Shown here one piece after another: positions 3,517 to 14,224 of a stretch of 14,224 nt of DNA; the first letter of the stretch is position 1; each line of letters begins with the position of its first letter. The translations under genes were made by a program, and so were the position numbers. The notes under the pieces were generated by a model. That model was not told the DNA's origin, made no database searches, and saw only the letters and a program-made list of their open reading frames with translations. Source of the DNA: Paraspadella gotoi (lineage: Eukaryota > Animalia > Chaetognatha). Location: positions 1-14,224 of the forward strand of contig JBJCIZ010000761.1 of assembly GCA_051294375.1 (NCBI GenBank), read 5' to 3'.

Positions 3517-4692
3517 TCAATTCGTTCTTTTCTTCGTCGCTTTCTTCGCCCATTCCGGATATCTTTCTCTCGGAGGAGGCGGAGGCGGCGGCGACATTGG
3601 CTGCAAGGTGGGAATCCTCCTTTTTGACGGAACCGGAACGCGAGAACGCGGCGGCGACCTCACGAAGTGTTCCATCCCTGCTGGTGGACGAAAAGAGGAA
3701 AGACGTAGATCCTGTTGCGGCGGAGATGGCGACCGTGGATGCGGACAAGACAGCGCTTCTATTTTCTCGTACATGCGTCCGCATGTTTGCGACCAAAGTC
3801 GCTCCGTCGTTGCCCGCCTCTGCTCTACCTCTCTCACGCGCCCTTCCAACTTCACCTCAGCTTGGATTCGTCTTTCCGTCTCTTTCTTGAGTTCCTGTTC
3901 GAGGCGCTCTATTTTTACGCGGAGATCGGCTTTTTCCATTTCCGCTCTCACGAGTTCCTGGCTTTGGCGACGGCATCTTTCCTCAAGCTTCGACCACCTG
4001 CTGCCGTCAAGATCCGTCTGTGATGCAGCCGAAAGTTTATTTTTCGTCTCTCCGGATGTCGTCGTTGTCGTTGCGTAGTCGACGGCCGGTCCAGATTTGT
4101 CAAAGATCACGACTCGAGTTGACGTCGCCGTTGGAGGTGGCGGCATGGTGGTCTCTGTAGTTGATTGTGATTGATGATTAGTCCGGATAACTTTGGCCAT
4201 CATTCGTAGCGTCTCCAGATCCGTCCCGTCGTTTATTGCCTTGATCAAGTCGTCGAATTCTGCTTCTCTCCATCCCCTGCATCTCGCCACCTTTCTCCAC
4301 GTTTTTTTTATTCTGCGTACCATTAGTTTATTTTCTTTCGTGATTTTAAAGTTTTTTAGGAAGAATGGCTCGTCGCCACTGTCGATCACTATTGGAACTG
4401 TAAAGTCAATTAATGCTCGTCGGTGCGGCGGTAGCGTTGACCTTTTGTTGAGGAATCTTGATGCAAAATCCTCGCCGTCTGCTGGAAATTGTTCCATGGT
4501 AGATGGCGCCGCAATTTCCTCGATCGACGCCGACGTAGCCAAAGAAATTGTCTCTGTTTCGTCCAGGGATATGCCGGGCTCCCTGAAGTCCCGTGCGAAT
4601 GGGAATTCCCCGAACATCTCCGCTTTTTCTTGGTCCGACGGCGCCCACATGACAGAGTCTAAATTGATGTCCATGTTGGAATATGATTCCAT
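3517..4692 (-). CDS. Accessory ORF7, ~391 aa soluble protein (acidic N-term, globular core, Thr/Pro linker, coiled coil, Pro/Arg-rich basic tail); not env-like
   Basis: Long open frame. The likely start is ATG 4692 (MESYSNM), after acceptor-like TTGTTCACTTATTATAG (4743-4744) and GCTTTCAG (4731-4732). No signal peptide or TM segment is visible. Confidence 0.75.
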   Translation of the reverse strand: MESYSNMDINLDSVMWAPSDQEKAEMFGEFPFARDFREPGISLDETETISLATSASIEEIAAPSTMEQFPADGEDFASRFLNKRSTLPPHRRALIDFTVPIVIDSGDEPFFLKNFKITKENKLMVRRIKKTWRKVARCRGWREAEFDDLIKAINDGTDLETLRMMAKVIRTNHQSQSTTETTMPPPPTATSTRVVIFDKSGPAVDYATTTTTSGETKNKLSAASQTDLDGSRWSKLEERCRRQSQELVRAEMEKADLRVKIERLEQELKKETERRIQAEVKLEGRVREVEQRRATTERLWSQTCGRMYEKIEALSCPHPRSPSPPQQDLRLSSFRPPAGMEHFVRSPPRSRVPVPSKRRIPTLQPMSPPPPPPPRERYPEWAKKATKKRTN

Positions 4693-4995
4693 CGCTATTT
4701 GTTGAATTTGGGATGTAGAATGTATTATATCTGAAAGCTTTCCTATAATAAGTGAACAATAAAAGAATGTATGGTAAATAAACATCGAGTCAAATTTCTT
4801 TTTACGATCAATGGACACTGTAATTGAGTTTATTGCAATTTAAGTATATCACATCTTTTACTTTTCAAACTCGGCCGGACTTTTCGTTTTTGCTCCGTTT
4901 TGATTCTGAATCACGTTGACTGGTAATGCTGGAACGACTTTATAATTTAAATTTAGATTGAGTTAATAACTTTGAAACTCTAGTTAACTATATAG

Positions 4996-5245
4996 CTAGT
5001 TTTTGCTTTTACTTATCGATCTAAATTCTGATTCGAAATTTTTCGAGTGTCTTTTGTCTATTTTTTCGCCCTCTACATTTCTCAGAAAAGTTTCTTCGAA
5101 CTTATCGCTTTTTGCCTTTAAGCGTCCTCAACTCGTCATTCATGTGGATGCTTGGGCGGTTTTTGTCCACTGACTTCGTTACAGCAACTTCCTTTACGAG
5201 GATGCCAAATCTTCCGAACTTTAACGCGATCTGTGAGATGTCCAT
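4996..5245 (-). pseudogene. Accessory ORF6, absent from ORF track: 47 aa as read (5102-5245), ~82 aa if one extra A near 5120 is removed
   Basis: MDISQIALKFGRFGILVKEVAVTKSVDKNRPSIHMNDELRTL, then KAKSDKFEETFLRNVEGEKIDKRHSKNFESEFRSISKSKN* in the shifted frame. Preceded by TTTATACTTGCCTTTAG (AG at 5259-5260). Confidence 0.5.
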
Positions 5246-5340
5246 TTCACTATTGAAACTAAAGGCAAGTATAAACGAAAATATAAATACGGTTCAACAC
5301 GATTCCAATATTTGAATGTTTTTTTTTTATGTCGGGTATT

Positions 5341-5652
5341 TCACGGCGTTTTGATATCTTTGACTTTATCTTTCGTTTGTTTTGAGAAGATCTTATTCTC
5401 AGCTTCCATAATATCGGCCCATCTGTCCAAGTTCTTAATTCTCCATTCATATTCTTCAGACTCTTTTTCCATCGGGAAACCGTGTGCGATGTAATTGTAA
5501 AATAATGATTCTAGTTTATCTCTATTCGCATTTCTTTTTTCCAGCGTGTCTTCAAGGTTATCCGGCGTCATCGCTGCGACTCTGGCTCTCTGTTGGATCC
5601 GAAAGCTCTGTGACTTTCCCGTCTCGTATTCGGTAAGTTCAGATTTGTTCAT
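5341..5652 (-). CDS. Accessory ORF5, 103 aa helical protein
   Basis: AAAAATG start 21 nt after CTTATTCAG (AG at 5674-5675). Shares a motif with ORF4. Confidence 0.65.
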   Translation of the reverse strand: MNKSELTEYETGKSQSFRIQQRARVAAMTPDNLEDTLEKRNANRDKLESLFYNYIAHGFPMEKESEEYEWRIKNLDRWADIMEAENKIFSKQTKDKVKDIKTP

Positions 5653-5722
5653 TTTTGTTTAAATGTCAATACACTGAATAAGTAGCGCTCAAAAAAAAAC
5701 GAACATAATAATAAATGATATT

Positions 5723-6004
5723 TTATTCGAGATTTGGTCTGTTTTGGTATTTCTTGTCTTTTGTGTGGTTCCTCATCGCTTTTTGGAATTTGGAGAAAAT
5801 TCGTTCTTGGGCGAATCTTACCTCGATCCATCTATCGTAGTACTTATTCTGTTCATTTAAATCGGCTTCTAATTGTTTCACTTTTTCTTTGTCATGATTG
5901 TATTTTTCCAATTGTTTTTTAATGTATTTTTCGTAAGAATCTTTCATCTTCATGGCATCTTCTACTGATTGTGGTGTGCAGTCGGCTTCTAGACACCATG
6001 TCAT
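5723..6004 (-). CDS. Accessory ORF4, ~93 aa helical protein (MTWCLEAD...)
   Basis: First in-frame ATG at 6004, downstream of CGTTCGTTCAG (AG at 6033-6034). Shares a DRW-x5-A-x3-IFSK motif with ORF5. Confidence 0.65.
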   Translation of the reverse strand: MTWCLEADCTPQSVEDAMKMKDSYEKYIKKQLEKYNHDKEKVKQLEADLNEQNKYYDRWIEVRFAQERIFSKFQKAMRNHTKDKKYQNRPNLE

Positions 6005-6061
6005 TGTTTCACATCGAAATTTGATCACTTCACTGAACGAACGGTAACAATTTTTGATATT

Positions 6062-6457
6062 CTACTTTCTCGTGGTTTCGACTTTCTTCTCGAGAGTTTT
6101 GATTTTTTCATCGATCTCTTTCTTCTCCTTTTCTAGACGGACTAATATTTCTTCATATATCCAAGAATTTACATACTTTTTTTCAGCTTCAAGGATTTCT
6201 GCTCCTTCTGTTTTTCTTTGTAGCAGGTTGTCTCTCTTTGCTTTGGCCCTTTCTAACGCCTTTTCCGGTGCGCTGGACTCTTCTTCAATTTCTGTTTGTC
6301 TTTTTTCGATCTCTTTTAATTCTACTTCGGGAAGGATTAGTTTTCGAGTAAGATTGATTGACTCTTGATATTCGCCTTTTTTCCATAATTCATGTCCTTT
6401 TTCCCATTCTTTACTAAGTTCATATCGTTTGTCTTTGAAACCTTTTGCAAGGTCCAT
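6062..6457 (-). CDS. Accessory ORF3, ~131 aa coiled-coil-like protein (MDLAKGF...)
   Basis: ATG at 6457 (AAAATG context) lies 5 nt after TTACTTTCTCAG. Confidence 0.65.
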   Translation of the reverse strand: MDLAKGFKDKRYELSKEWEKGHELWKKGEYQESINLTRKLILPEVELKEIEKRQTEIEEESSAPEKALERAKAKRDNLLQRKTEGAEILEAEKKYVNSWIYEEILVRLEKEKKEIDEKIKTLEKKVETTRK

Positions 6458-6536
6458 TTTGGCTGAGAAAGTAATTTTAATTAACGATAACATAACATTG
6501 TTTTTACCAACTGTGATAAACTATTTCACTATATTT

Positions 6537-6896
6537 TTAGATCATCGATTTCTGGATGTTTTTCAGTTTTTTTGTTGTTTCACTGATCTTTTTCTGGGTT
6601 CTTTCTTCGATTATACCGAAGATTTTTTCTCTTTCCGTATGGGTCTCTTTGGCTTTTTTAATGTTTTCTTTGAGCTGCGTCCACTCTTCGATTTTTTTCT
6701 CCAGTTTGGACATTGCTCTGTCTGGATGCTTTTTCACTTCCATCTCTTCCTCCTCGTTCTTCACTTTCAGCTTCAACTCTCTTTCGTTCATGACCAGTTC
6801 GAACACTTCTCTCCAATTATCTTTTCCTTCTTTCTCCCCCGCCAGTCTCTCCCACCTTCTTTCTATTTCCATCCATTTCTCATTCGCCGTTTCCAT
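6537..6896 (-). CDS. Accessory ORF2, ~119 aa coiled-coil-like protein (METANEKW...)
   Basis: ATG at 6896 lies 5 nt after TATTATTACAG. E/K-rich amphipathic sequence. Confidence 0.65.
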   Translation of the reverse strand: METANEKWMEIERRWERLAGEKEGKDNWREVFELVMNERELKLKVKNEEEEMEVKKHPDRAMSKLEKKIEEWTQLKENIKKAKETHTEREKIFGIIEERTQKKISETTKKLKNIQKSMI

Positions 6897-6966
6897 GGTA
6901 ACTGTAATAATACGTGAACGCAATTATCAAAACGAATTTTTATTATACGGATGTTTTTTGATTTCA

Positions 6967-7449
6967 TCATTTCGTTTTAATTTTTCTTCTAATCAGGAAT
7001 AGTCTCTTGTTTCTTTTTTTTGTTCTTTCTTTATCCTCGTCGTGTCTGTTGGTGGTTTCGTCTGTTTCTTCGGGGATGGTCAGTTCTTGTGGTTTCGGCG
7101 TTGTTTGTTGTTCGTTTTTTGGTTTTCTCGACATTCTCTTTGCAATGGAATTCCTCGTCTCCTCGTCGAATTCCTCCTCCGGGATCTTGTATATCTTTTT
7201 GTAAATTGTCTCTTCGTCGTCTACGGGCAATGGTGGCGGAACGTAAATGCCTTTTAGTTCTTTAGTAAGTTCCGTTATCATTTGTCTTCTCCGCCTGACT
7301 GCGTCTAGTATTATGTTTATTTCTGTGGTTGGTGCGTATCCCCATGATTGTACGGCTTCTACCTCCTCCCATAATTCCTTCACCATCTTGTCGATTGATG
7401 ATCTCAACTGTCTCTCAAAACATCCTTTTACAAATAGTTCGATGTTCAT
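6967..7449 (-). CDS. Accessory ORF1, 160 aa, unknown function (helical N-half, acidic/basic tail)
   Basis: ATG-initiated ORF ~150 nt after the pol stop, same strand, with K/E-rich composition like pol. The C-terminus may be altered by an A-run indel near 7015. Confidence 0.65.
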   Translation of the reverse strand: MNIELFVKGCFERQLRSSIDKMVKELWEEVEAVQSWGYAPTTEINIILDAVRRRRQMITELTKELKGIYVPPPLPVDDEETIYKKIYKIPEEEFDEETRNSIAKRMSRKPKNEQQTTPKPQELTIPEETDETTNRHDEDKERTKKRNKRLFLIRRKIKTK

Positions 7450-7601
7450 CTTTTCGATGCTTGTTATTCTCTATGTTTGCATGATTTTCGTATTGACATT
7501 TAATTATTCAATTTGTCTATTAGATTCTTTTCAAACAAATTCAATCTACCGTTCAAGTTTTTAGCTGATTTTTTATGTTTTTCTTTTTTCGGTTGACAGT
7601 T

Positions 7602-8099
7602 TTATTCCAACTCCAGTTGGACCAACGCATTGTGATGTCGTCGAAATGTTCTCCCGTCGGCGAGTCGGACGATTGCTTCTCTTTTGAGCGGGCCGTCTCC
7701 TTTCATCTCGGTGACTCTGCCCGTTCTCCACTGATCCCGCGGTGCGTTCGGCTCGACGAGCATTCGACGACTTGGCCCTCTTTCAGGTTTTCTGCCGAGT
7801 TTCGCCATTTTGTTCTTTCCTGTAATGAGATCAAATATTCTGTATGCCATCTTTTCCAGAATTCGTCAGCCACCTCTCTCACTTGTCTCCAAGCTGCCTT
7901 CATACAGTCTCCTTCTGCTGCTGCATATGGTAATAATGTTAATGATGTTGAGGTGAATAGATATGGATATAAAAAAATTGATGGCGACAGCGCTACTTCG
8001 CTTTTGGGATCGGATGACTCAAATGTTAATGGGCGTCGATTTAATATACCTGCGGTTTCACTTAGGATCGTCGCGAAGGTGTCGACGTCCAATTCGTTT
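7602..8099 (-). pseudogene. pol: Integrase C-terminal part of pol, split by two frameshifts (~8097-8099 and ~7764-7765)
   Basis: ILNRRPLT...LSPS...FWKRWHTEYLISLQERTKW...LKEGQVV (frame of 7703-8161), then MLVEPNAPRDQWRTGRV...RRHHNALVQLELE* (frame of 7602-7850). This is the typical BEL integrase tail. Confidence 0.9.
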
Positions 8100-11000
8100 G
8101 CATGACGGCTTTGAGGTGCTTCTTTGTTTCGCGGATCATCCTTTCCCACGCACCTCCCCAATGAGGAGCGTTTGGCGGTCCGAAAGTCCAGGTGATGCCC
8201 TTTTTGGCTATTCCTTCGTTGACTTTGGTGTCTTCTTGAAGGTGTTGAAGTTGTTTCTCGATTTCGTTGCTGGCGCCTACGAGATTGGTGCCGTTGTCTG
8301 ATACGAATGTCCGTACTCCTGGATAAACATTTTTAAATCTTATTAATGCGCTAAGCATAGATTGAGATGACATGTCTTTTAAGATTTCGAACGCTACTGC
8401 TCGTGTCGTCAGACAAGTGAATATAACGACATTCTTTTTGTTTAGTCCCCGCCCGGCGTGCTTCACCTGAAATGGGCCAAAACAGTCAAGTCCTGTGACT
8501 TCGAATGGGATTGTCTCGTTCACTCGAAATTCTGGATGTTCGGCCATTTTCTGCGGTGACGGGACTTTCAAGTTTCTTTGGCAATTCAAACATCGACGGA
8601 CGATCTTTTCCACTGCGGGTCTTCCTCCCAATAAGGTAAATTTCTGTCTGAGCGAATGAAATGTTGCGCATGCTCCGGAGTGGTATAATGTCACATGTTC
8701 ATGGCGTATCAACGACTCTACGTTTTCTTCATCTTTAGGTAATATGATGGGATGTTTGGTATGATATGGTAGGCCTTTTGAGTTCCCCAACCTTCCTCCA
8801 GTCCTCATTATTCCTTCTTCGTCTATAAATGGGCTCAATGCAATGATTCTCGAATTTCTGTGTCTTAACTCTCTGTGTGAATTTGGCGTCATTACTCCCA
8901 GTTTGAGCAACTCGAATATTTCCTTTTCAAATTTCTTTCTTTGAATAGCTTTGATTAATTTCATTTCGGCTTTTTTAAAGTCTTCTCCTGTCATCATGAT
9001 TTGTTTTCTTTCAATCTTTTCCCCTTTTTTCTCGCGAATTCGACTTTCGACTAGTCCTTTCACGGCTTTTGCAACGTATGCTATTCTTCTTACTTTTTTT
9101 GTCCACTCGCTAATTTTTTCGGTCGCTGTCAGCACCCAATCTTCGCGTTCTTTGCCGATCTCTTTCTTTGGGTATTCTCGCGTCGAATTTGCAAAAATTA
9201 ACTCCATTGGGCTATATTCACTATCATCATGAATCGCGGTTATATTTACTACCGTTTCTTCTTTCTTTTTCTTTAGTTTGTCTAAGTCTTCAGTGACTGG
9301 CCATTCCTCTTTCTTTTTACTAAGCCATTCGGGGCCTTTGTGGAACTTCTTCCAGTTTTCTGTGTCATCTGCGTCGACTCCACGACTTGTGAGATCTGCC
9401 GGGTTTTCTTGTGAAGGTACATATTTCCATTCATTCGGTCTTGATAACGATCGGATCGTTTTTAATCGGAAGTTTTCATATGTCTTAAATCTTTTCTTCC
9501 AATCTCTAATCCATCTTATCACCGTTATTGAGTCCGTGAGCATGTGAATTTCGTCAAACTCCTCTCCCGCTTCTCTAATCATAGTATCTCTTGTCTGTGC
9601 TGCTAATCTAGCCGCGTTCAGCTCTAGTCTTGGCATCGAGTCTCCATGATCCAACTGGTCTTCAATAATTATTTTTTCCTGCATCTTTACTGGAACCACA
9701 TGTGCTTTTGCGAATAATAGTGTTACGTGACTTTTTTCACTGCCCTTGTTTTCCTTCTTAATGTATATCGCCACCCCATAACCTTCACAACTCGCGTCGC
9801 AAAATACTATCAGCGTTGTCTTCACACAATCTAGCCCGATGATGCTCGTCCACCTCGGAATTCTTATTCGCTTCAAGAAATGCATCTTCTTCCTCCATTT
9901 GTCAAACGCTTCGAACAGCTCTTCCGGTAGTTTCTCATCCCAGTCCAATCCTTCCATTACCACTTTCTGGAAAATGCTTCGTCCTTTCAGCACGAAAGGT
10001 GCTACTAATCCCAGTGGGTCGAATACTGACGCCACTAATTTAAGCACGTCTCTCCTCGTCTTTGCCTCTTTTTTAGATTTTTCTGTGACACGCACAAAGA
10101 AAACGTCTCGTTTCGAGTTATAACCAGTTCCTAGTACTTTCGAATCGTGTTCTTCCATCGATGGATCTTCCGGCAGAGCGTTTCCGGCCAGTCCTTCAAG
10201 ATTGTCTTCTAAATCTTCCTCCAGTCCTTCGTCGACATCTTCGTTTGTCGACTCATCATTTTCGTTTTCTTCTGCTTTATCTAATAATATTTTTGGGTGA
10301 GATGCTTGCCACTTGGTTAATTCGAATCCTCCTCTTCTCATAGCCTCCGTCATATCTAGCCTCATTTTTCGAGCTTCTTTAATTCCATCTAAAGTGTCGA
10401 GATAATCGTCGACGTATACTTTTATGAAGAAGGCGATAATGACCTCTGGCGAAAATTCTCCGGTAAAGCTCAACCTTTTTCCATGGTACTGTAGCACGAA
10501 TGTAGCTACTCCCGGGCTTCCTGCTCCCCCGAATACATGTACTAGCGGCTCATGCACCTCCAACGTCTTCATCGATTCGTCTGTGTACCAATGATACCTG
10601 AAAGCGGCAACATCTTTTGGATGTAATTCAACTTGATGGAAAAATCCTTTAATGTCAGCAGAGATTGTATATCTTTTCCTCCTGAATTTTAACAGCATAC
10701 CGATCAGCGGAGTCAGGTTGTCCGGCCCCCCGATAAGATGGTCGTTTAGTGCGTTCCCGTTCACTTTTGATGCTGCGTCTTGGCAAATTCTGAACTTTCC
10801 CGGCTTGTCTGGTCTTGTGACGACTAGTAATGGCGCGAAACATTCTGGATTTCCCGGCGGTGGGTGGTCGGCTACAGCTTTTCTTGCATGACCCGATTCG
10901 ATTGTCTCTTTCATTGTCTTGAATACCCCTTCCTTCAGCACTGGATCTTTCCGCATCTTGTTCGCCAACTTTCGGGCGCGGCTCTCTGCGTTTTTTATGA

Positions 11001-11793
11001 CGTCATCTTTAACCGTCTCAAAAAATTCGGCAGTCTTTTCTCTTCCCTTTTTCCATGGGGATGGCGCGACATAGTGCCCAGTCTTTTCGTTAAAGTATAC
11101 CTCCTTCTCCAGCTGCTCCAATGCGTAACAATCTTCCGCCGACGGATGCTGCACCTCCGAAGGATATTTTTCTGTCCCTCTCATCAAGAAATCATGCCGG
11201 AACATCGACGCGATCATGTACTCTAACTTTTCGTGCTCGTGCGGTGTTGAACAACAACTAATATGGTCTCCGCTTTCGTTCTCACTTGCTCCTACTAATG
11301 TCCATCCAAACAAGGTTTTCAAAGCGACTGGATAACCTTCCGGTCCTTTTCTTATTTCTCCTCCGACCCACGTGTGCGCCAATCTTGCGTCAAGGATCAT
11401 CTCCACCGAATCGTCTTCTAAATCAGCGAATTCCACTCCTTTCATGTAATGATAGTCTTCGATCTCCTCGTTTCTCGTCGGTCGGTCAGTCTCCGTCGTG
11501 AGGACTTCTCCGACCATCACTTTTCTCATCTCTGTCGTGAATGTATCTTCTAAGTTAGAGATTTCGATGTCTCCGTAGTCCCTCCATGCTCTTGAAACTT
11601 TATCATATGTTGTTAAGTTAGTATACTCAGAATAAGTGGCTACATTTAGTTCTTCGGCTATTTTTATCGACATGGCGGAGCGGGTAGCGCCGCTGTCTAG
11701 TAATGCGTACGTAACGACCGATTTTTCACCATTTCTGACTACGACTGGAACGATCGGCCGGAATGCTCCTGTCGTCACGTACGCTGCCGCCAG
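8062..11793 (-). CDS. pol: Pol polyprotein: aspartic protease, reverse transcriptase, RNase H, integrase zinc finger and DDE core
   Basis: Protease YALLDSGA. RT KFRICQDAA, ADIKGFFHQV, VFGGAGSP, YVDD. RNase H VFCDAS, PRLEL, TDS, ENPADLTSRG. Integrase H-x4-H...CLNC, GLDCFGP, SDNGTNL, GGAWERM. The frame is open directly after the gag stop (CTG at 11793). Confidence 0.97.
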   Translation of the reverse strand: MAAAYVTTGAFRPIVPVVVRNGEKSVVTYALLDSGATRSAMSIKIAEELNVATYSEYTNLTTYDKVSRAWRDYGDIEISNLEDTFTTEMRKVMVGEVLTTETDRPTRNEEIEDYHYMKGVEFADLEDDSVEMILDARLAHTWVGGEIRKGPEGYPVALKTLFGWTLVGASENESGDHISCCSTPHEHEKLEYMIASMFRHDFLMRGTEKYPSEVQHPSAEDCYALEQLEKEVYFNEKTGHYVAPSPWKKGREKTAEFFETVKDDVIKNAESRARKLANKMRKDPVLKEGVFKTMKETIESGHARKAVADHPPPGNPECFAPLLVVTRPDKPGKFRICQDAASKVNGNALNDHLIGGPDNLTPLIGMLLKFRRKRYTISADIKGFFHQVELHPKDVAAFRYHWYTDESMKTLEVHEPLVHVFGGAGSPGVATFVLQYHGKRLSFTGEFSPEVIIAFFIKVYVDDYLDTLDGIKEARKMRLDMTEAMRRGGFELTKWQASHPKILLDKAEENENDESTNEDVDEGLEEDLEDNLEGLAGNALPEDPSMEEHDSKVLGTGYNSKRDVFFVRVTEKSKKEAKTRRDVLKLVASVFDPLGLVAPFVLKGRSIFQKVVMEGLDWDEKLPEELFEAFDKWRKKMHFLKRIRIPRWTSIIGLDCVKTTLIVFCDASCEGYGVAIYIKKENKGSEKSHVTLLFAKAHVVPVKMQEKIIIEDQLDHGDSMPRLELNAARLAAQTRDTMIREAGEEFDEIHMLTDSITVIRWIRDWKKRFKTYENFRLKTIRSLSRPNEWKYVPSQENPADLTSRGVDADDTENWKKFHKGPEWLSKKKEEWPVTEDLDKLKKKKEETVVNITAIHDDSEYSPMELIFANSTREYPKKEIGKEREDWVLTATEKISEWTKKVRRIAYVAKAVKGLVESRIREKKGEKIERKQIMMTGEDFKKAEMKLIKAIQRKKFEKEIFELLKLGVMTPNSHRELRHRNSRIIALSPFIDEEGIMRTGGRLGNSKGLPYHTKHPIILPKDEENVESLIRHEHVTLYHSGACATFHSLRQKFTLLGGRPAVEKIVRRCLNCQRNLKVPSPQKMAEHPEFRVNETIPFEVTGLDCFGPFQVKHAGRGLNKKNVVIFTCLTTRAVAFEILKDMSSQSMLSALIRFKNVYPGVRTFVSDNGTNLVGASNEIEKQLQHLQEDTKVNEGIAKKGITWTFGPPNAPHWGGAWERMIRETKKHLKAVMQTNWTSTPSRRS

Positions 11794-11796
11794 TCA
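11705..11796 (-). promoter_or_regulatory. Candidate gag-pol stop-codon readthrough signal (UGA-C, 9-nt spacer, 14-bp stem)
   Basis: mRNA reads UGA CUGGCGGCA GCGUACGUGACGAC ...52 nt... GUCGUUACGUACGC. The arms 11771-11784 and 11705-11718 pair 14/14 with one G-U. Confidence 0.65.
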
Positions 11797-13425
11797 GGAG
11801 GAGCTCTGATTTTGGTCAGTTTCCTCCCGATGTAGGGATGCGTGATGCCTCTGTCCGCATGTCTGGCACCCCATAAGATTTGAGCAAGTTCTTGCCATGT
11901 GACCTCGTCCGAAACATAATCTGCATAAACCTTTCTCTTTCATCCAATTTAATCTCTCGTCGACGTTCAACTCGAGAAACTTCGAACATACTCCCGTGAA
12001 GTGGTTTTTTTCACAAAAATCACATTTCGACTGTCTTGGCCCTCTTGGTGCGTGGTTATTTGGATCTGAATTCGGATTAGCAAAATTTCGATTCGCTGCA
12101 ATGGTTGCTTTCGACGCGCGGGTGGTCGTGGCTGCACGAACGGAAATATGGTTTCTAACGACTTCCCCTGATGTCCTCGCGCTGTTGTAATTAGACCCGC
12201 TCGGTTTGTCTCCCGACACGGTCCCTTGTTTCATCAGTATTCCCATCGTTTCTTTCGATCTAGTTACCTCTTTCACTATGTCTAAGAACTCTTCGAATTT
12301 CAACTCAAGATCGCCTTTCTTTCTGTCATCTCCCTTTAAAATGGCCAATTCATGTTTAGTCATTCTTTTTGCGACAGGATTAGCTAGAAATGGTAATTTT
12401 TTTGAGATGATCTCTATATAAGTTTCGCGAGTTGAAAAGGTTGCGGCACGGTTCGTCTCGATGGCTCTTTTATAAAACCTTTCCATCTCTAGTATAAATG
12501 TTCTTGCCCCCGTGAAATCCCTTTCGTTTATCTTCGGCCCTTTCAGAAGTTCCTCCAGCATCTGCTGCGCCGTGAAATTTTTACGCCCGAATTCTATCTC
12601 CAATGCTTTTTTTGCTTCTTTCAATGCCTCGGTATGGTTTCCCGATGCCTCATGTTGTGACACTATGATCCCAGCGTCCCCGTCGAAATACTCTTTTAGC
12701 TCAGACATTAATATTTCGTCCGTTACTCCCACCACTTTGCTCAACGACTCAAACAAGTTCAATTGTGATTCAAAGTCTACTCGTCGATCCTTTCCACTAA
12801 ATTTTAATTTCGGTCTTTTTTGTCTGACAATACTCAGCGCCTGCTGTTGAGTTTGTAAAATGCATAATTGTGTGAGTGCATTCTCATGTGAGGATTGGAA
12901 ATTAATTTTTTCTTCCTTATTTTTATTCCTCCCTCCCCCGTCCAGGTCCTCAACAAATGATTCGACAACAGACGACATCGTCGGGCGCGGCGCGCTGCGA
13001 CACGAACATTTGTGACACTCAGTTAACATCGACGAGTCCTCAACATTATGAACAGGGATCACGGAAGAAATGACCGGCGGATGTGTTGGCGTGAACGGCG
13101 GCGAGTGACTAATTGACTGTGTTACTATCGGTGACGTTGTGAAAACCGGCGGAGCGAGTATTGTCGGCGGCAACGATGGTAACGGGACCGGCGGTGGCAA
13201 TGTGACGGGCGGCGGCGGCGGTACTATCCGCGGCGGCGGCGCGATCGGCAACGGCGGTGACCCGGACGAAACTGGCGGTGGTTCGGACGAAACTTGCGGC
13301 AGCGCGGACGAACGGACGGCGGAGGAGGCGCGCATGGCGGCGATGAAGTAACGCGGCCGGCCGGCGGCGCAATAATGTTCTGTCGATTCTCGGCTTCTCC
13401 TCTTCTCCTCAAGTAAGTCCCTCAT
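11794..13425 (-). CDS. gag: Gag, main open segment (Pro-rich region, capsid-like DUF1759-type region, three zinc knuckles)
   Basis: C-terminal CDFCEKNHFTGVC, CRLCFGRGHMARTC and CQTCGQRHHASLH match the BEL/Pao triple-knuckle pattern. LKFSG...FE..L..F resembles the BEL gag core. Ends at TGA 11794-11796. The true start is upstream of 13425. Confidence 0.9.
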   Translation of the reverse strand: MRDLLEEKRRSRESTEHYCAAGRPRYFIAAMRASSAVRSSALPQVSSEPPPVSSGSPPLPIAPPPRIVPPPPPVTLPPPVPLPSLPPTILAPPVFTTSPIVTQSISHSPPFTPTHPPVISSVIPVHNVEDSSMLTECHKCSCRSAPRPTMSSVVESFVEDLDGGGRNKNKEEKINFQSSHENALTQLCILQTQQQALSIVRQKRPKLKFSGKDRRVDFESQLNLFESLSKVVGVTDEILMSELKEYFDGDAGIIVSQHEASGNHTEALKEAKKALEIEFGRKNFTAQQMLEELLKGPKINERDFTGARTFILEMERFYKRAIETNRAATFSTRETYIEIISKKLPFLANPVAKRMTKHELAILKGDDRKKGDLELKFEEFLDIVKEVTRSKETMGILMKQGTVSGDKPSGSNYNSARTSGEVVRNHISVRAATTTRASKATIAANRNFANPNSDPNNHAPRGPRQSKCDFCEKNHFTGVCSKFLELNVDERLNWMKEKGLCRLCFGRGHMARTCSNLMGCQTCGQRHHASLHREETDQNQSSS

Positions 13426-14224
13426 GAGCTTGACTAGAAATATCTTCCTCTTCTTTCCTTTCCTCCCTTTCCTTTCCTCCCTCTCACCGTAGTAATGATC
13501 GATTTGGGCACCGTCGTTTCCGGCGGAGATTCCTCAACGTGTGTCGCGTACGATCGGGTTGCGTTCCTCATGACGTTCGACGATCGGGCGTTCCTCGACG
13601 CGGCGCTCGCGATCGGCGTTCCTCAACATGACGTCCGCTCCGGCGACTCACGACGCTCCGACGTGACGCCTTCGTACGACCGCCGTCCGATCTACAAGAA
13701 TACAGGTCTTCTTCAGAGCTGTCTCCACTAATTCGTGATAATCTCTCTTTAACTGCCCTTTCCTTCTTTTCAATAGCCTTTCGTTGAAATTCGAATTCTA
13801 TTGCTTTCTCTCTTTTCCTTCTTCATTCTTTTCCTTTCCGCTTCTCTCATTTTTTCCTCTTTTCTCTTACGGATCTCCTTAATCTTTGCTTCTAACGCTT
13901 CTTCTTCTCTCTTTCGAATCTCCTTCATCTTCGCCTCCAGAGCTTCCTCTTCTTCTCTGCTCTCTCGTTCTACTCTCCTTCTTTCTTTCTCAATCTTATT
14001 CTTTTCTTTCGCTTCCTCAAATGCACGACGCTCATCTTCAACTCTCTCTAGGTCGAGAACCAACCTCTGGCGGATCGTCTCTTGAGACGATCGGGATGAC
14101 TTTGTTACCGACGTTCCCCCGTTTTTCGACGATCTGACGCTCACGCTCGACGGTTCCAAATACGCGGAGATGCCCGTAGCGGATTTCGGCGACGTACATA
14201 CGGACGGAGATGTTGCCACCCAGT
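13426..14224 (-). pseudogene. gag: Frameshift-broken 5' part of gag (Ser-rich then E/K/R coiled coil)
   Basis: ORF 13770-14219 is open to the window edge. Protein-like text continues in shifted frames (EKAIEFEFQRKAIEKKERAVKERLSRISGDSSEED..., VEERPIV-type repeats, VEESPPETTVPKS) down to 13425. It needs several indels to join. Confidence 0.7.
13863..13952 (-). repeat. 45-bp in-frame tandem duplication in gag (EEEALEAK[M/I]KEIRKR x2)
   Basis: Two adjacent 15-codon copies, seen directly in the translation. Confidence 0.9.

Follow-up and report, generated by a model that had tools for sequence, protein, structure and literature searches.

An in-frame UGA followed by a covarying stem separates gag from pol in two diverged BEL/Pao retrotransposons: a candidate case of programmed readthrough

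The effect of a 3′ structure on translation termination has so far been measured in four animal virus genera (PMC13517186). Segment 9 of the coltivirus CTFV and the alphaviruses VEEV and SINV, which belong to Beier-Grimm type II, carry a UGA-CUA or UGA-CGG stop context, and an extended stem that encloses a large loop follows after a spacer of 8-9 nt (PMC13517186). The tested stimulators begin at +12 in MoMLV, VEEV and CTFV (the U of the stop being +1), the CTFV element measures 78 nt and has a basal stem of 17 bp, and with a spacer of at least 8 bases the structure is thought to lie where the mRNA enters the ribosome (PMC13517186). In MoMLV, a UAG-G context is combined with an H-type pseudoknot, the UAG lies between the nucleocapsid knuckles and the protease, and the RNA element also codes for the N terminus of the protease (PMC13517186). 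Among LTR retrotransposons, the Ty1/copia element Tca2 of Candida albicans has an in-frame UGA between gag and pol together with a predicted 3′ structure, and its junction directed no readthrough in yeast reporters (PMC2194720). The Belpaoviridae, in turn, are characterized by a three-knuckle Gag, the order PR-RT-RH-IN, and Pao A17 and DUF5641 domains, and their profile gives one continuous or two overlapping genes rather than an in-frame stop (PMC8742986). Stop codon readthrough is a known mechanism, and this family is one described as having a fused or overlapping gag-pol. The silkworm element Kamikaze reportedly has a stop between gag and pol (Gao et al. 2003, RNA 9:1422), and may be a precedent within BEL/Pao. 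No paper on BEL/Pao readthrough was found by our literature search; the terms 'stop codon' and 'frameshift' are absent from the accessible part of the family survey PMC3118150, and the accessible parts of PMC554778, PMC5009743, PMC6238403, PMC6317226 and PMC12440569 contain nothing on a BEL/Pao gag-pol stop.

The window analyzed here is a 14,224-nt stretch of Paraspadella gotoi DNA, and the features of its gag-pol region are collected in Table 1. A preliminary description of this DNA had placed gag and pol in one frame with only a UGA, followed by CUG, between them, and this layout was confirmed on the minus strand, where gag is closed at 11796-11794 and the same frame reopens at 11793. The Cys-His motifs of Gag are located at residues 504, 537 and 556, 11 residues separate the last knuckle from the stop, and a Pfam search of the window gag returned zero matches. 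In pol, no in-frame Met occurs before codon 41, past the protease Asp at codon 33, in agreement with the earlier statement that no pol ATG precedes the DSG motif; the sole ATG within the first 99 nt of pol is out of frame.

Table 1. Positions of the gag-UGA-pol junction and neighboring features in the window
Feature	Position	Strand	Remarks
gag ORF	11797..13533	-	579 codons stop to stop, three Cys-His knuckles
In-frame UGA ending gag	11794..11796	-	same TGA at 1043-1045 of the distant relative L001
9-nt spacer CUG GCG GCA	11785..11793	-	UGACUGGC common to window and L001
Stem 5′ arm	11771..11784	-	codons Ala-Tyr-Val-Thr-Thr
Loop, 52 nt	11719..11770	-	inner folding differs in L001
Stem 3′ arm	11705..11718	-	codons Val-Val-Thr-Tyr-Ala, directly 5′ of the protease motif
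Protease DSG motif	11689..11697	-	Asp is pol codon 33; Pfam aspartyl-protease matches weak
pol ORF, 1243 codons	8062..11793	-	protease, RT (YVDD at 10416), Pao A17/RNase H region, integrase
pol 3′ end (DUF5641)	7601..8100	-	interrupted by frame changes at about 8100 and 7770 in the window copy
Open charged coiled-coil-like frame	13770..14222	-	probably the N-terminal part of gag, detached from the main gag frame

Short-read contigs of two runs, X1 and X4, which are possibly the window's own source, showed 0 differences over the junction, so that a read error at the TGA can be dismissed. Diverged copies were uninformative on variants of the junction, with no differences in 11705-11796 among the 40 of 1477 rows listed. 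An alternative genetic code was rejected, since four reading frames of the window and of its distant relative L001 (see below) contain 0 in-frame TGA against 46 TGG, and UGA terminates the pol of L001. Frameshifting was rejected as well, since gag and pol share a frame and no slippery heptamer is present.

The assignment to BEL/Pao rests on several features. The window Pol matched the Pfam families PF13975 (weakly, residues 29-71), PF00078 (366-492), PF05380 (579-755, E 1.5e-34) and PF17921 (1022-1074), with PF18701 beyond, giving the order protease-RT-RNase H-integrase with Pao-type domains. Three Cys-His knuckles are typical of a BEL/Pao Gag, and three are present here. A Cys-His box is also named for the family in PMC554778. 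The named distant matches were all animal proteins at 23-34% identity, most of them with PF05380 and/or PF03564. The preliminary description had contrasted this junction with a family in which gag-pol is usually fused or frameshifted, and the contrast fits the continuous or overlapping genes that the ICTV gives for the family (PMC8742986), a trait that is descriptive rather than diagnostic and from which the window departs by having its genes in frame with one UGA between them. As to LTRs, a primer-binding site and a polypurine tract, no long direct repeat was found within the window, which stops inside the presumed start of gag. The other lesions mentioned earlier for this copy are present, as frame breaks in pol near 8100 and 7770 and a cut in gag between 13533 and 13770. 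Note, however, that within 7000-10765 short-read contigs carry gaps relative to the window (11 in X1; 3 in X4, within 7000-9502), so that some of the frame breaks may be read errors.

Several other observations were made in the window. Downstream of pol, at 3517-7470 on the same strand, lie six tightly packed ORFs of 167, 128, 152, 112, 105 and 440 codons, none with a Pfam match below E 0.01 and the largest with no Atlas match of at least 0.9; they may be accessory cargo of the element, and the part of the window below ~7480 is not covered by diverged copies. Three GC-rich 57-nt repeats of 86-88% identity, spaced by 119 and 84 nt, are found at 2444-2703 within an Arg-rich frame of 107 codons. 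Contigs from X5 and X6 (probably one data set, and RNA only by guess) match 7618-14224, one contig showing no other letters and a single gap, and they omit GT..AG segments on the plus strand, opposite gag-pol, at ~7787-7859, 7930-8065, 8192-8445, 8636-12945, 13413-13492 and 13706-14051; the 4310-nt segment 8636-12945 spans the gag-pol junction. The depth of the spliced contigs was 125-190, against 3-4 for identical unspliced pieces, and their stop-free frames reached at most 111 codons. These contigs look like abundant spliced antisense RNA.

The stem proposed earlier, of 14 bp beginning 9 nt past the stop with a 52-nt loop and one G-U, was found as described, with all 14 positions paired. Other 120-nt windows of the same pol (n = 59) held at most 11 contiguous pairs, and when the window peptide was re-drawn synonymously (20,000 draws), at least 14 pairs in register were obtained in 2.6% of draws. 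Folding of the junction, which had been suggested as a check, gave a divided answer: the z-score, which varies with the boundaries chosen, was only -1.42 on 111 nt (14/200 shuffles equally stable) and reached -3.54 once trimmed to the arm ends, a trimming that flatters the score. The minimum free energy fold has an alternative pairing available for the innermost three pairs, whose probabilities are 0.73, 0.56 and 0.48. The case for the stem from the window by itself is modest and suggestive, and it is L001 that makes it. Rfam returned 0 matches for either element. A short extra helix is possible in both, between 11790-11793 and 11697-11700 in the window and between 1046-1050 and 1138-1142 in L001; it would join the CUGG that immediately follows the stop to the Leu-Asp codons in the protease motif, and would sit within the terminating ribosome.

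A metagenome scan returned 9 loci, among which L001 was the sole true relative; the other eight (L002-L009) matched only the protease motif and were discarded. The L001 junction reads gag-TGA-CTG-GC-pol, its Gag is 31% identical to that of the window, and its pol is intact, with 1468 codons and 40% identity to the window Pol. Directly after the stop, 48/90 nt are alike. Within the stem arms only 13/28 bases are identical, and yet 14/14 pairs are kept in the same register, through 6 double changes and 3 single changes with 5 pairs unchanged. Slid registers were only 14-54% paired. The observed pair conservation was equalled by 9 of 500 shuffles, which is near the floor for two sequences, in a control that takes no account of kinship and uses a pairing register derived from the window. 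The L001 helix extends to 24 pairs; at least 21 occurred in 0.2% of synonymous draws (P = 0.002), and background windows of L001 (n = 70) had at most 12. It contains eight G-U pairs and scores z = -4.21 in the sense orientation against -0.26 in antisense, and the eight G-U pairs point to a fold specific to the sense strand. Conservation of the UGA and covariation in the stem, which the preliminary description had proposed to look for in other copies, are thus both found in this relative. The gag-UGA-pol junction with its covarying downstream stem is real and conserved, as seen in the two junctions available as DNA, and the stem is predicted to form in the cell.

The distribution of the split was examined at the protein level. 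A search with the window Pol gave 42 matches, 29 of them at 37-44% identity and without the Gag domain PF03564, which was present in 10 of the 13 distant matches. The L001 Pol added at least 25 further relatives (34-68% identity) without a Gag domain, among the 120 of its 141 matches that were listed. These 54 close relatives are metagenome proteins and none is a fused Gag-Pol. In all of them the protease Asp is preceded by at most 32 residues, the number found in the window, as counted by alignment for the first 29 and, for the 25 others, by motif (16) or by eye (9, starting at or after the Asp). Ten clusters with 406 members contained 142 listed members of at most 1482 aa, on contigs of up to 18.8 kb. 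A Gag profile search gave 150 matches, of which the best 109 were looked at; 29 were unscorable, and the 80 with a scorable third knuckle, one of them the L001 Gag, all stop no more than 70 residues past the last knuckle. P0304, the single full fusion whose match is Gag-wide, lies outside the Pol-only branch. In RT-RNase H trees, a branch with support 100 set 31 Pol-only rows apart from 11-12 fused rows; the trees (quick and FastTree) were midpoint-rooted, left out P0037 and P0040, included no BEL/Pao reference set and labelled P0032 as fused, though only 76 residues precede its Asp. Note that the gene calls of the relatives, some of which may be clipped by contig ends, speak for Gag/Pol separation and a fixed upstream limit of pol rather than for the identity of the stop. 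The relatives known only as proteins nevertheless probably share the in-frame stop. A sense codon at this position in most copies had been named as the outcome that would speak against readthrough, and no such outcome was seen, with the stop kept in L001 and fusion seen in none of the 54.

Genome scans returned two fused BEL/Pao fragments, L010 and L011, which were taken as outgroups, and no split relative. Scans of viral contigs returned no relative of the window element, the Gag alignment offered no stretch conserved enough to scan with, and a word-based Gag search gave one match, an unrelated knuckle. The fragments L010 and L011 and the protein P0072 are BEL/Pao pieces in bacterial assemblies and probably represent eukaryotic contamination. 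Three further Pol-only proteins, P0393-P0395 (28-30% identity), may form a sister group whose junction differs: the outer relative P0394 (29% identity) has 36 residues before the Asp and shows no stem-compatible pairs.

A trace of the stem was sought in the proteins, where the helix sets the two leading bases of codon k against those of codon 34-k (33-k if the loop is one codon longer). Pairing-compatible codon pairs numbered 33/44 in 13 N-termini, and 25/36 without the window and L001, compared with 13/48 in 12 fused elements and 6/52 to 17/52 in slid registers. Codon pair 7:27, for example, is Thr-Val, Gly-Ser, Gly-Pro or Ala-Ala. When 10 representatives were permuted, p was 5e-5, or 7e-4 if only Watson-Crick pairs counted, with kinship ignored and the register taken from the window. 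In a held-out set of nine proteins, most of them called too late to include the 5′ arm, 6/16 pairs were compatible, a nonsignificant result (p 0.22); P0368, P0377 and P0380 of this set fit at the base of the stem. The inner pairs of P0001 were compatible in 0/2 cases, a misfit suggesting a shorter or bulged stem in part of the group. The fused outgroups had no helix of more than 8 pairs at the junction, though L011 pairs at 10/14 register positions.

One interpretation of these data is that programmed readthrough of the UGA is the way in which Gag-Pol is made, and from the arrangement of the sequence this is probably the case. The UGA-C context and the predicted long stem 8-9 nt downstream would together help low-frequency readthrough, giving a Gag-Pol fusion. 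The stem would sit at the mRNA entry of the ribosome and delay termination, allowing a near-cognate tRNA to decode the UGA, so that most ribosomes would stop and release Gag while a few per cent would continue to Gag-Pol, which would be packaged by way of its Gag portion and cleaved by the protease. Readthrough would in this way set the Gag:Pol ratio. The stem starts at +13 in the window and +12 in L001, within an element of 80-82 nt, and this match to the spacing in the tested viruses suggests the same mechanism for both.

An alternative is that Pol is produced as a separate protein, by re-initiation or by a non-AUG start at the CUG after the stop, with the stem aiding a weak start. The CUG and the G after it are common to both elements, where CUG makes up 17/97 (window) and 10/146 (L001) of the pol Leu codons, L001 has an in-frame ATG at pol codon 8, and a subgroup of relatives (P0006, P0012, P0014, P0015 and P0022) has its called start at the second codon past the presumed stop. 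Given any CUN codon, however, the probability of CUG in both is ~0.06. The base at -3 of the CUG is a U, which makes a poor start context by the Kozak rule. No UGGGA re-initiation motif is found within 150 nt upstream of either stop, the last 30 nt before the stop are alike at only 8/30 positions between window and L001, and the called starts of the relatives range from codon 2 to past the protease motif. A separate start would, moreover, need no strict in-frame stop, and this explanation is considered unlikely.

Less likely again is removal or avoidance of the stop at the RNA level, either through splicing of an intron whose last bases are the CAG at +8 to +10 or through an internal promoter yielding a pol-only RNA. 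Both junctions read TGAC-N6-CAG, phase-1 GT-purine-A sites lie upstream in the gag of both, and Tca2 has a minor promoter inside its junction (PMC2194720). Against an intron, there is no pyrimidine tract before the AG, P0006 has a Met at the CAG codon, which excludes CAG if the register holds, and no minus-strand splice joints were seen among the 15 of 26 joints listed; in the window, a transcript of pol alone would offer no in-frame AUG upstream of the protease Asp. Only a slim chance is likewise given to the stem serving some other job, such as packaging, dimerization or pausing, with the UGA leaking through its context or being bypassed by way of a distant element, as proposed for Tca2. Covariation is evidence of structure and not of function, and for the chikungunya and triatovirus structures stimulation is unconfirmed (PMC13517186); but in both elements the stem begins 8-9 nt past the stop, the spacing of tested stimulators, and the fused outgroups lack a comparable helix there. 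Finally, the preliminary description raised the caveat of a nonsense mutation, and this copy does have frame breaks elsewhere. The corresponding reading, in which the copy is dead, its UGA a nonsense mutation and the stem a product of chance, is in practice refuted by the same stop at the same place and the covarying stem in L001, whose pol is intact, and by the lack of any fusion among the close relatives, and deserves hardly any credence.

Readthrough remains the preferred reading, and the likeness to alphaviruses pointed out earlier stands for UGA-C, spacer and long stem and fails for the codon after the stop, UGA-CUG being unlike the tested type II contexts, with only +4 C and +5 U agreeing with CUA (PMC13517186). 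Of the type II traits, a stem 8-12 nt past the stop and a downstream in-frame ORF conserved together with the stop are both found here. The predicted stems of 14-24 bp likewise resemble that of CTFV in scale (PMC13517186). In contrast to the alphaviruses and coltiviruses, the element is an LTR retrotransposon with no homology to them. With MoMLV, the junction shares its position between knuckles and protease, its spacing, its presumed purpose and the coding of the protease N terminus by the RNA element (PMC13517186); it belongs to a different family, however, and its UGA-C stop with a predicted plain stem departs from the gammaretroviral type III pattern of UAG-G, a purine-rich 8-nt spacer and an H-type pseudoknot. 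The resemblance to Tca2, a fungal copia element, is in the in-frame UGA and predicted 3′ structure, and the window and L001 differ from it in showing stem covariation at 40% protein identity; the failure of Tca2 in reporters is a warning against assuming readthrough from a similar junction.

A large BEL/Pao branch, of at least 54 distinct Pol families from metagenomes, may well have independently evolved a switch in the style of alphaviruses and coltiviruses, in which the stem dictates residue pairs at the N terminus of the protease. This would be a third mode of Pol expression for this family of retroelements, and one that marks a whole branch. Gene callers split such elements, and lone copies would pass as pseudogenes. 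The dozens of diverged families would also offer a natural series of stem lengths behind a stop, with which the tuning of eukaryotic termination by 3′ structure may be tested.
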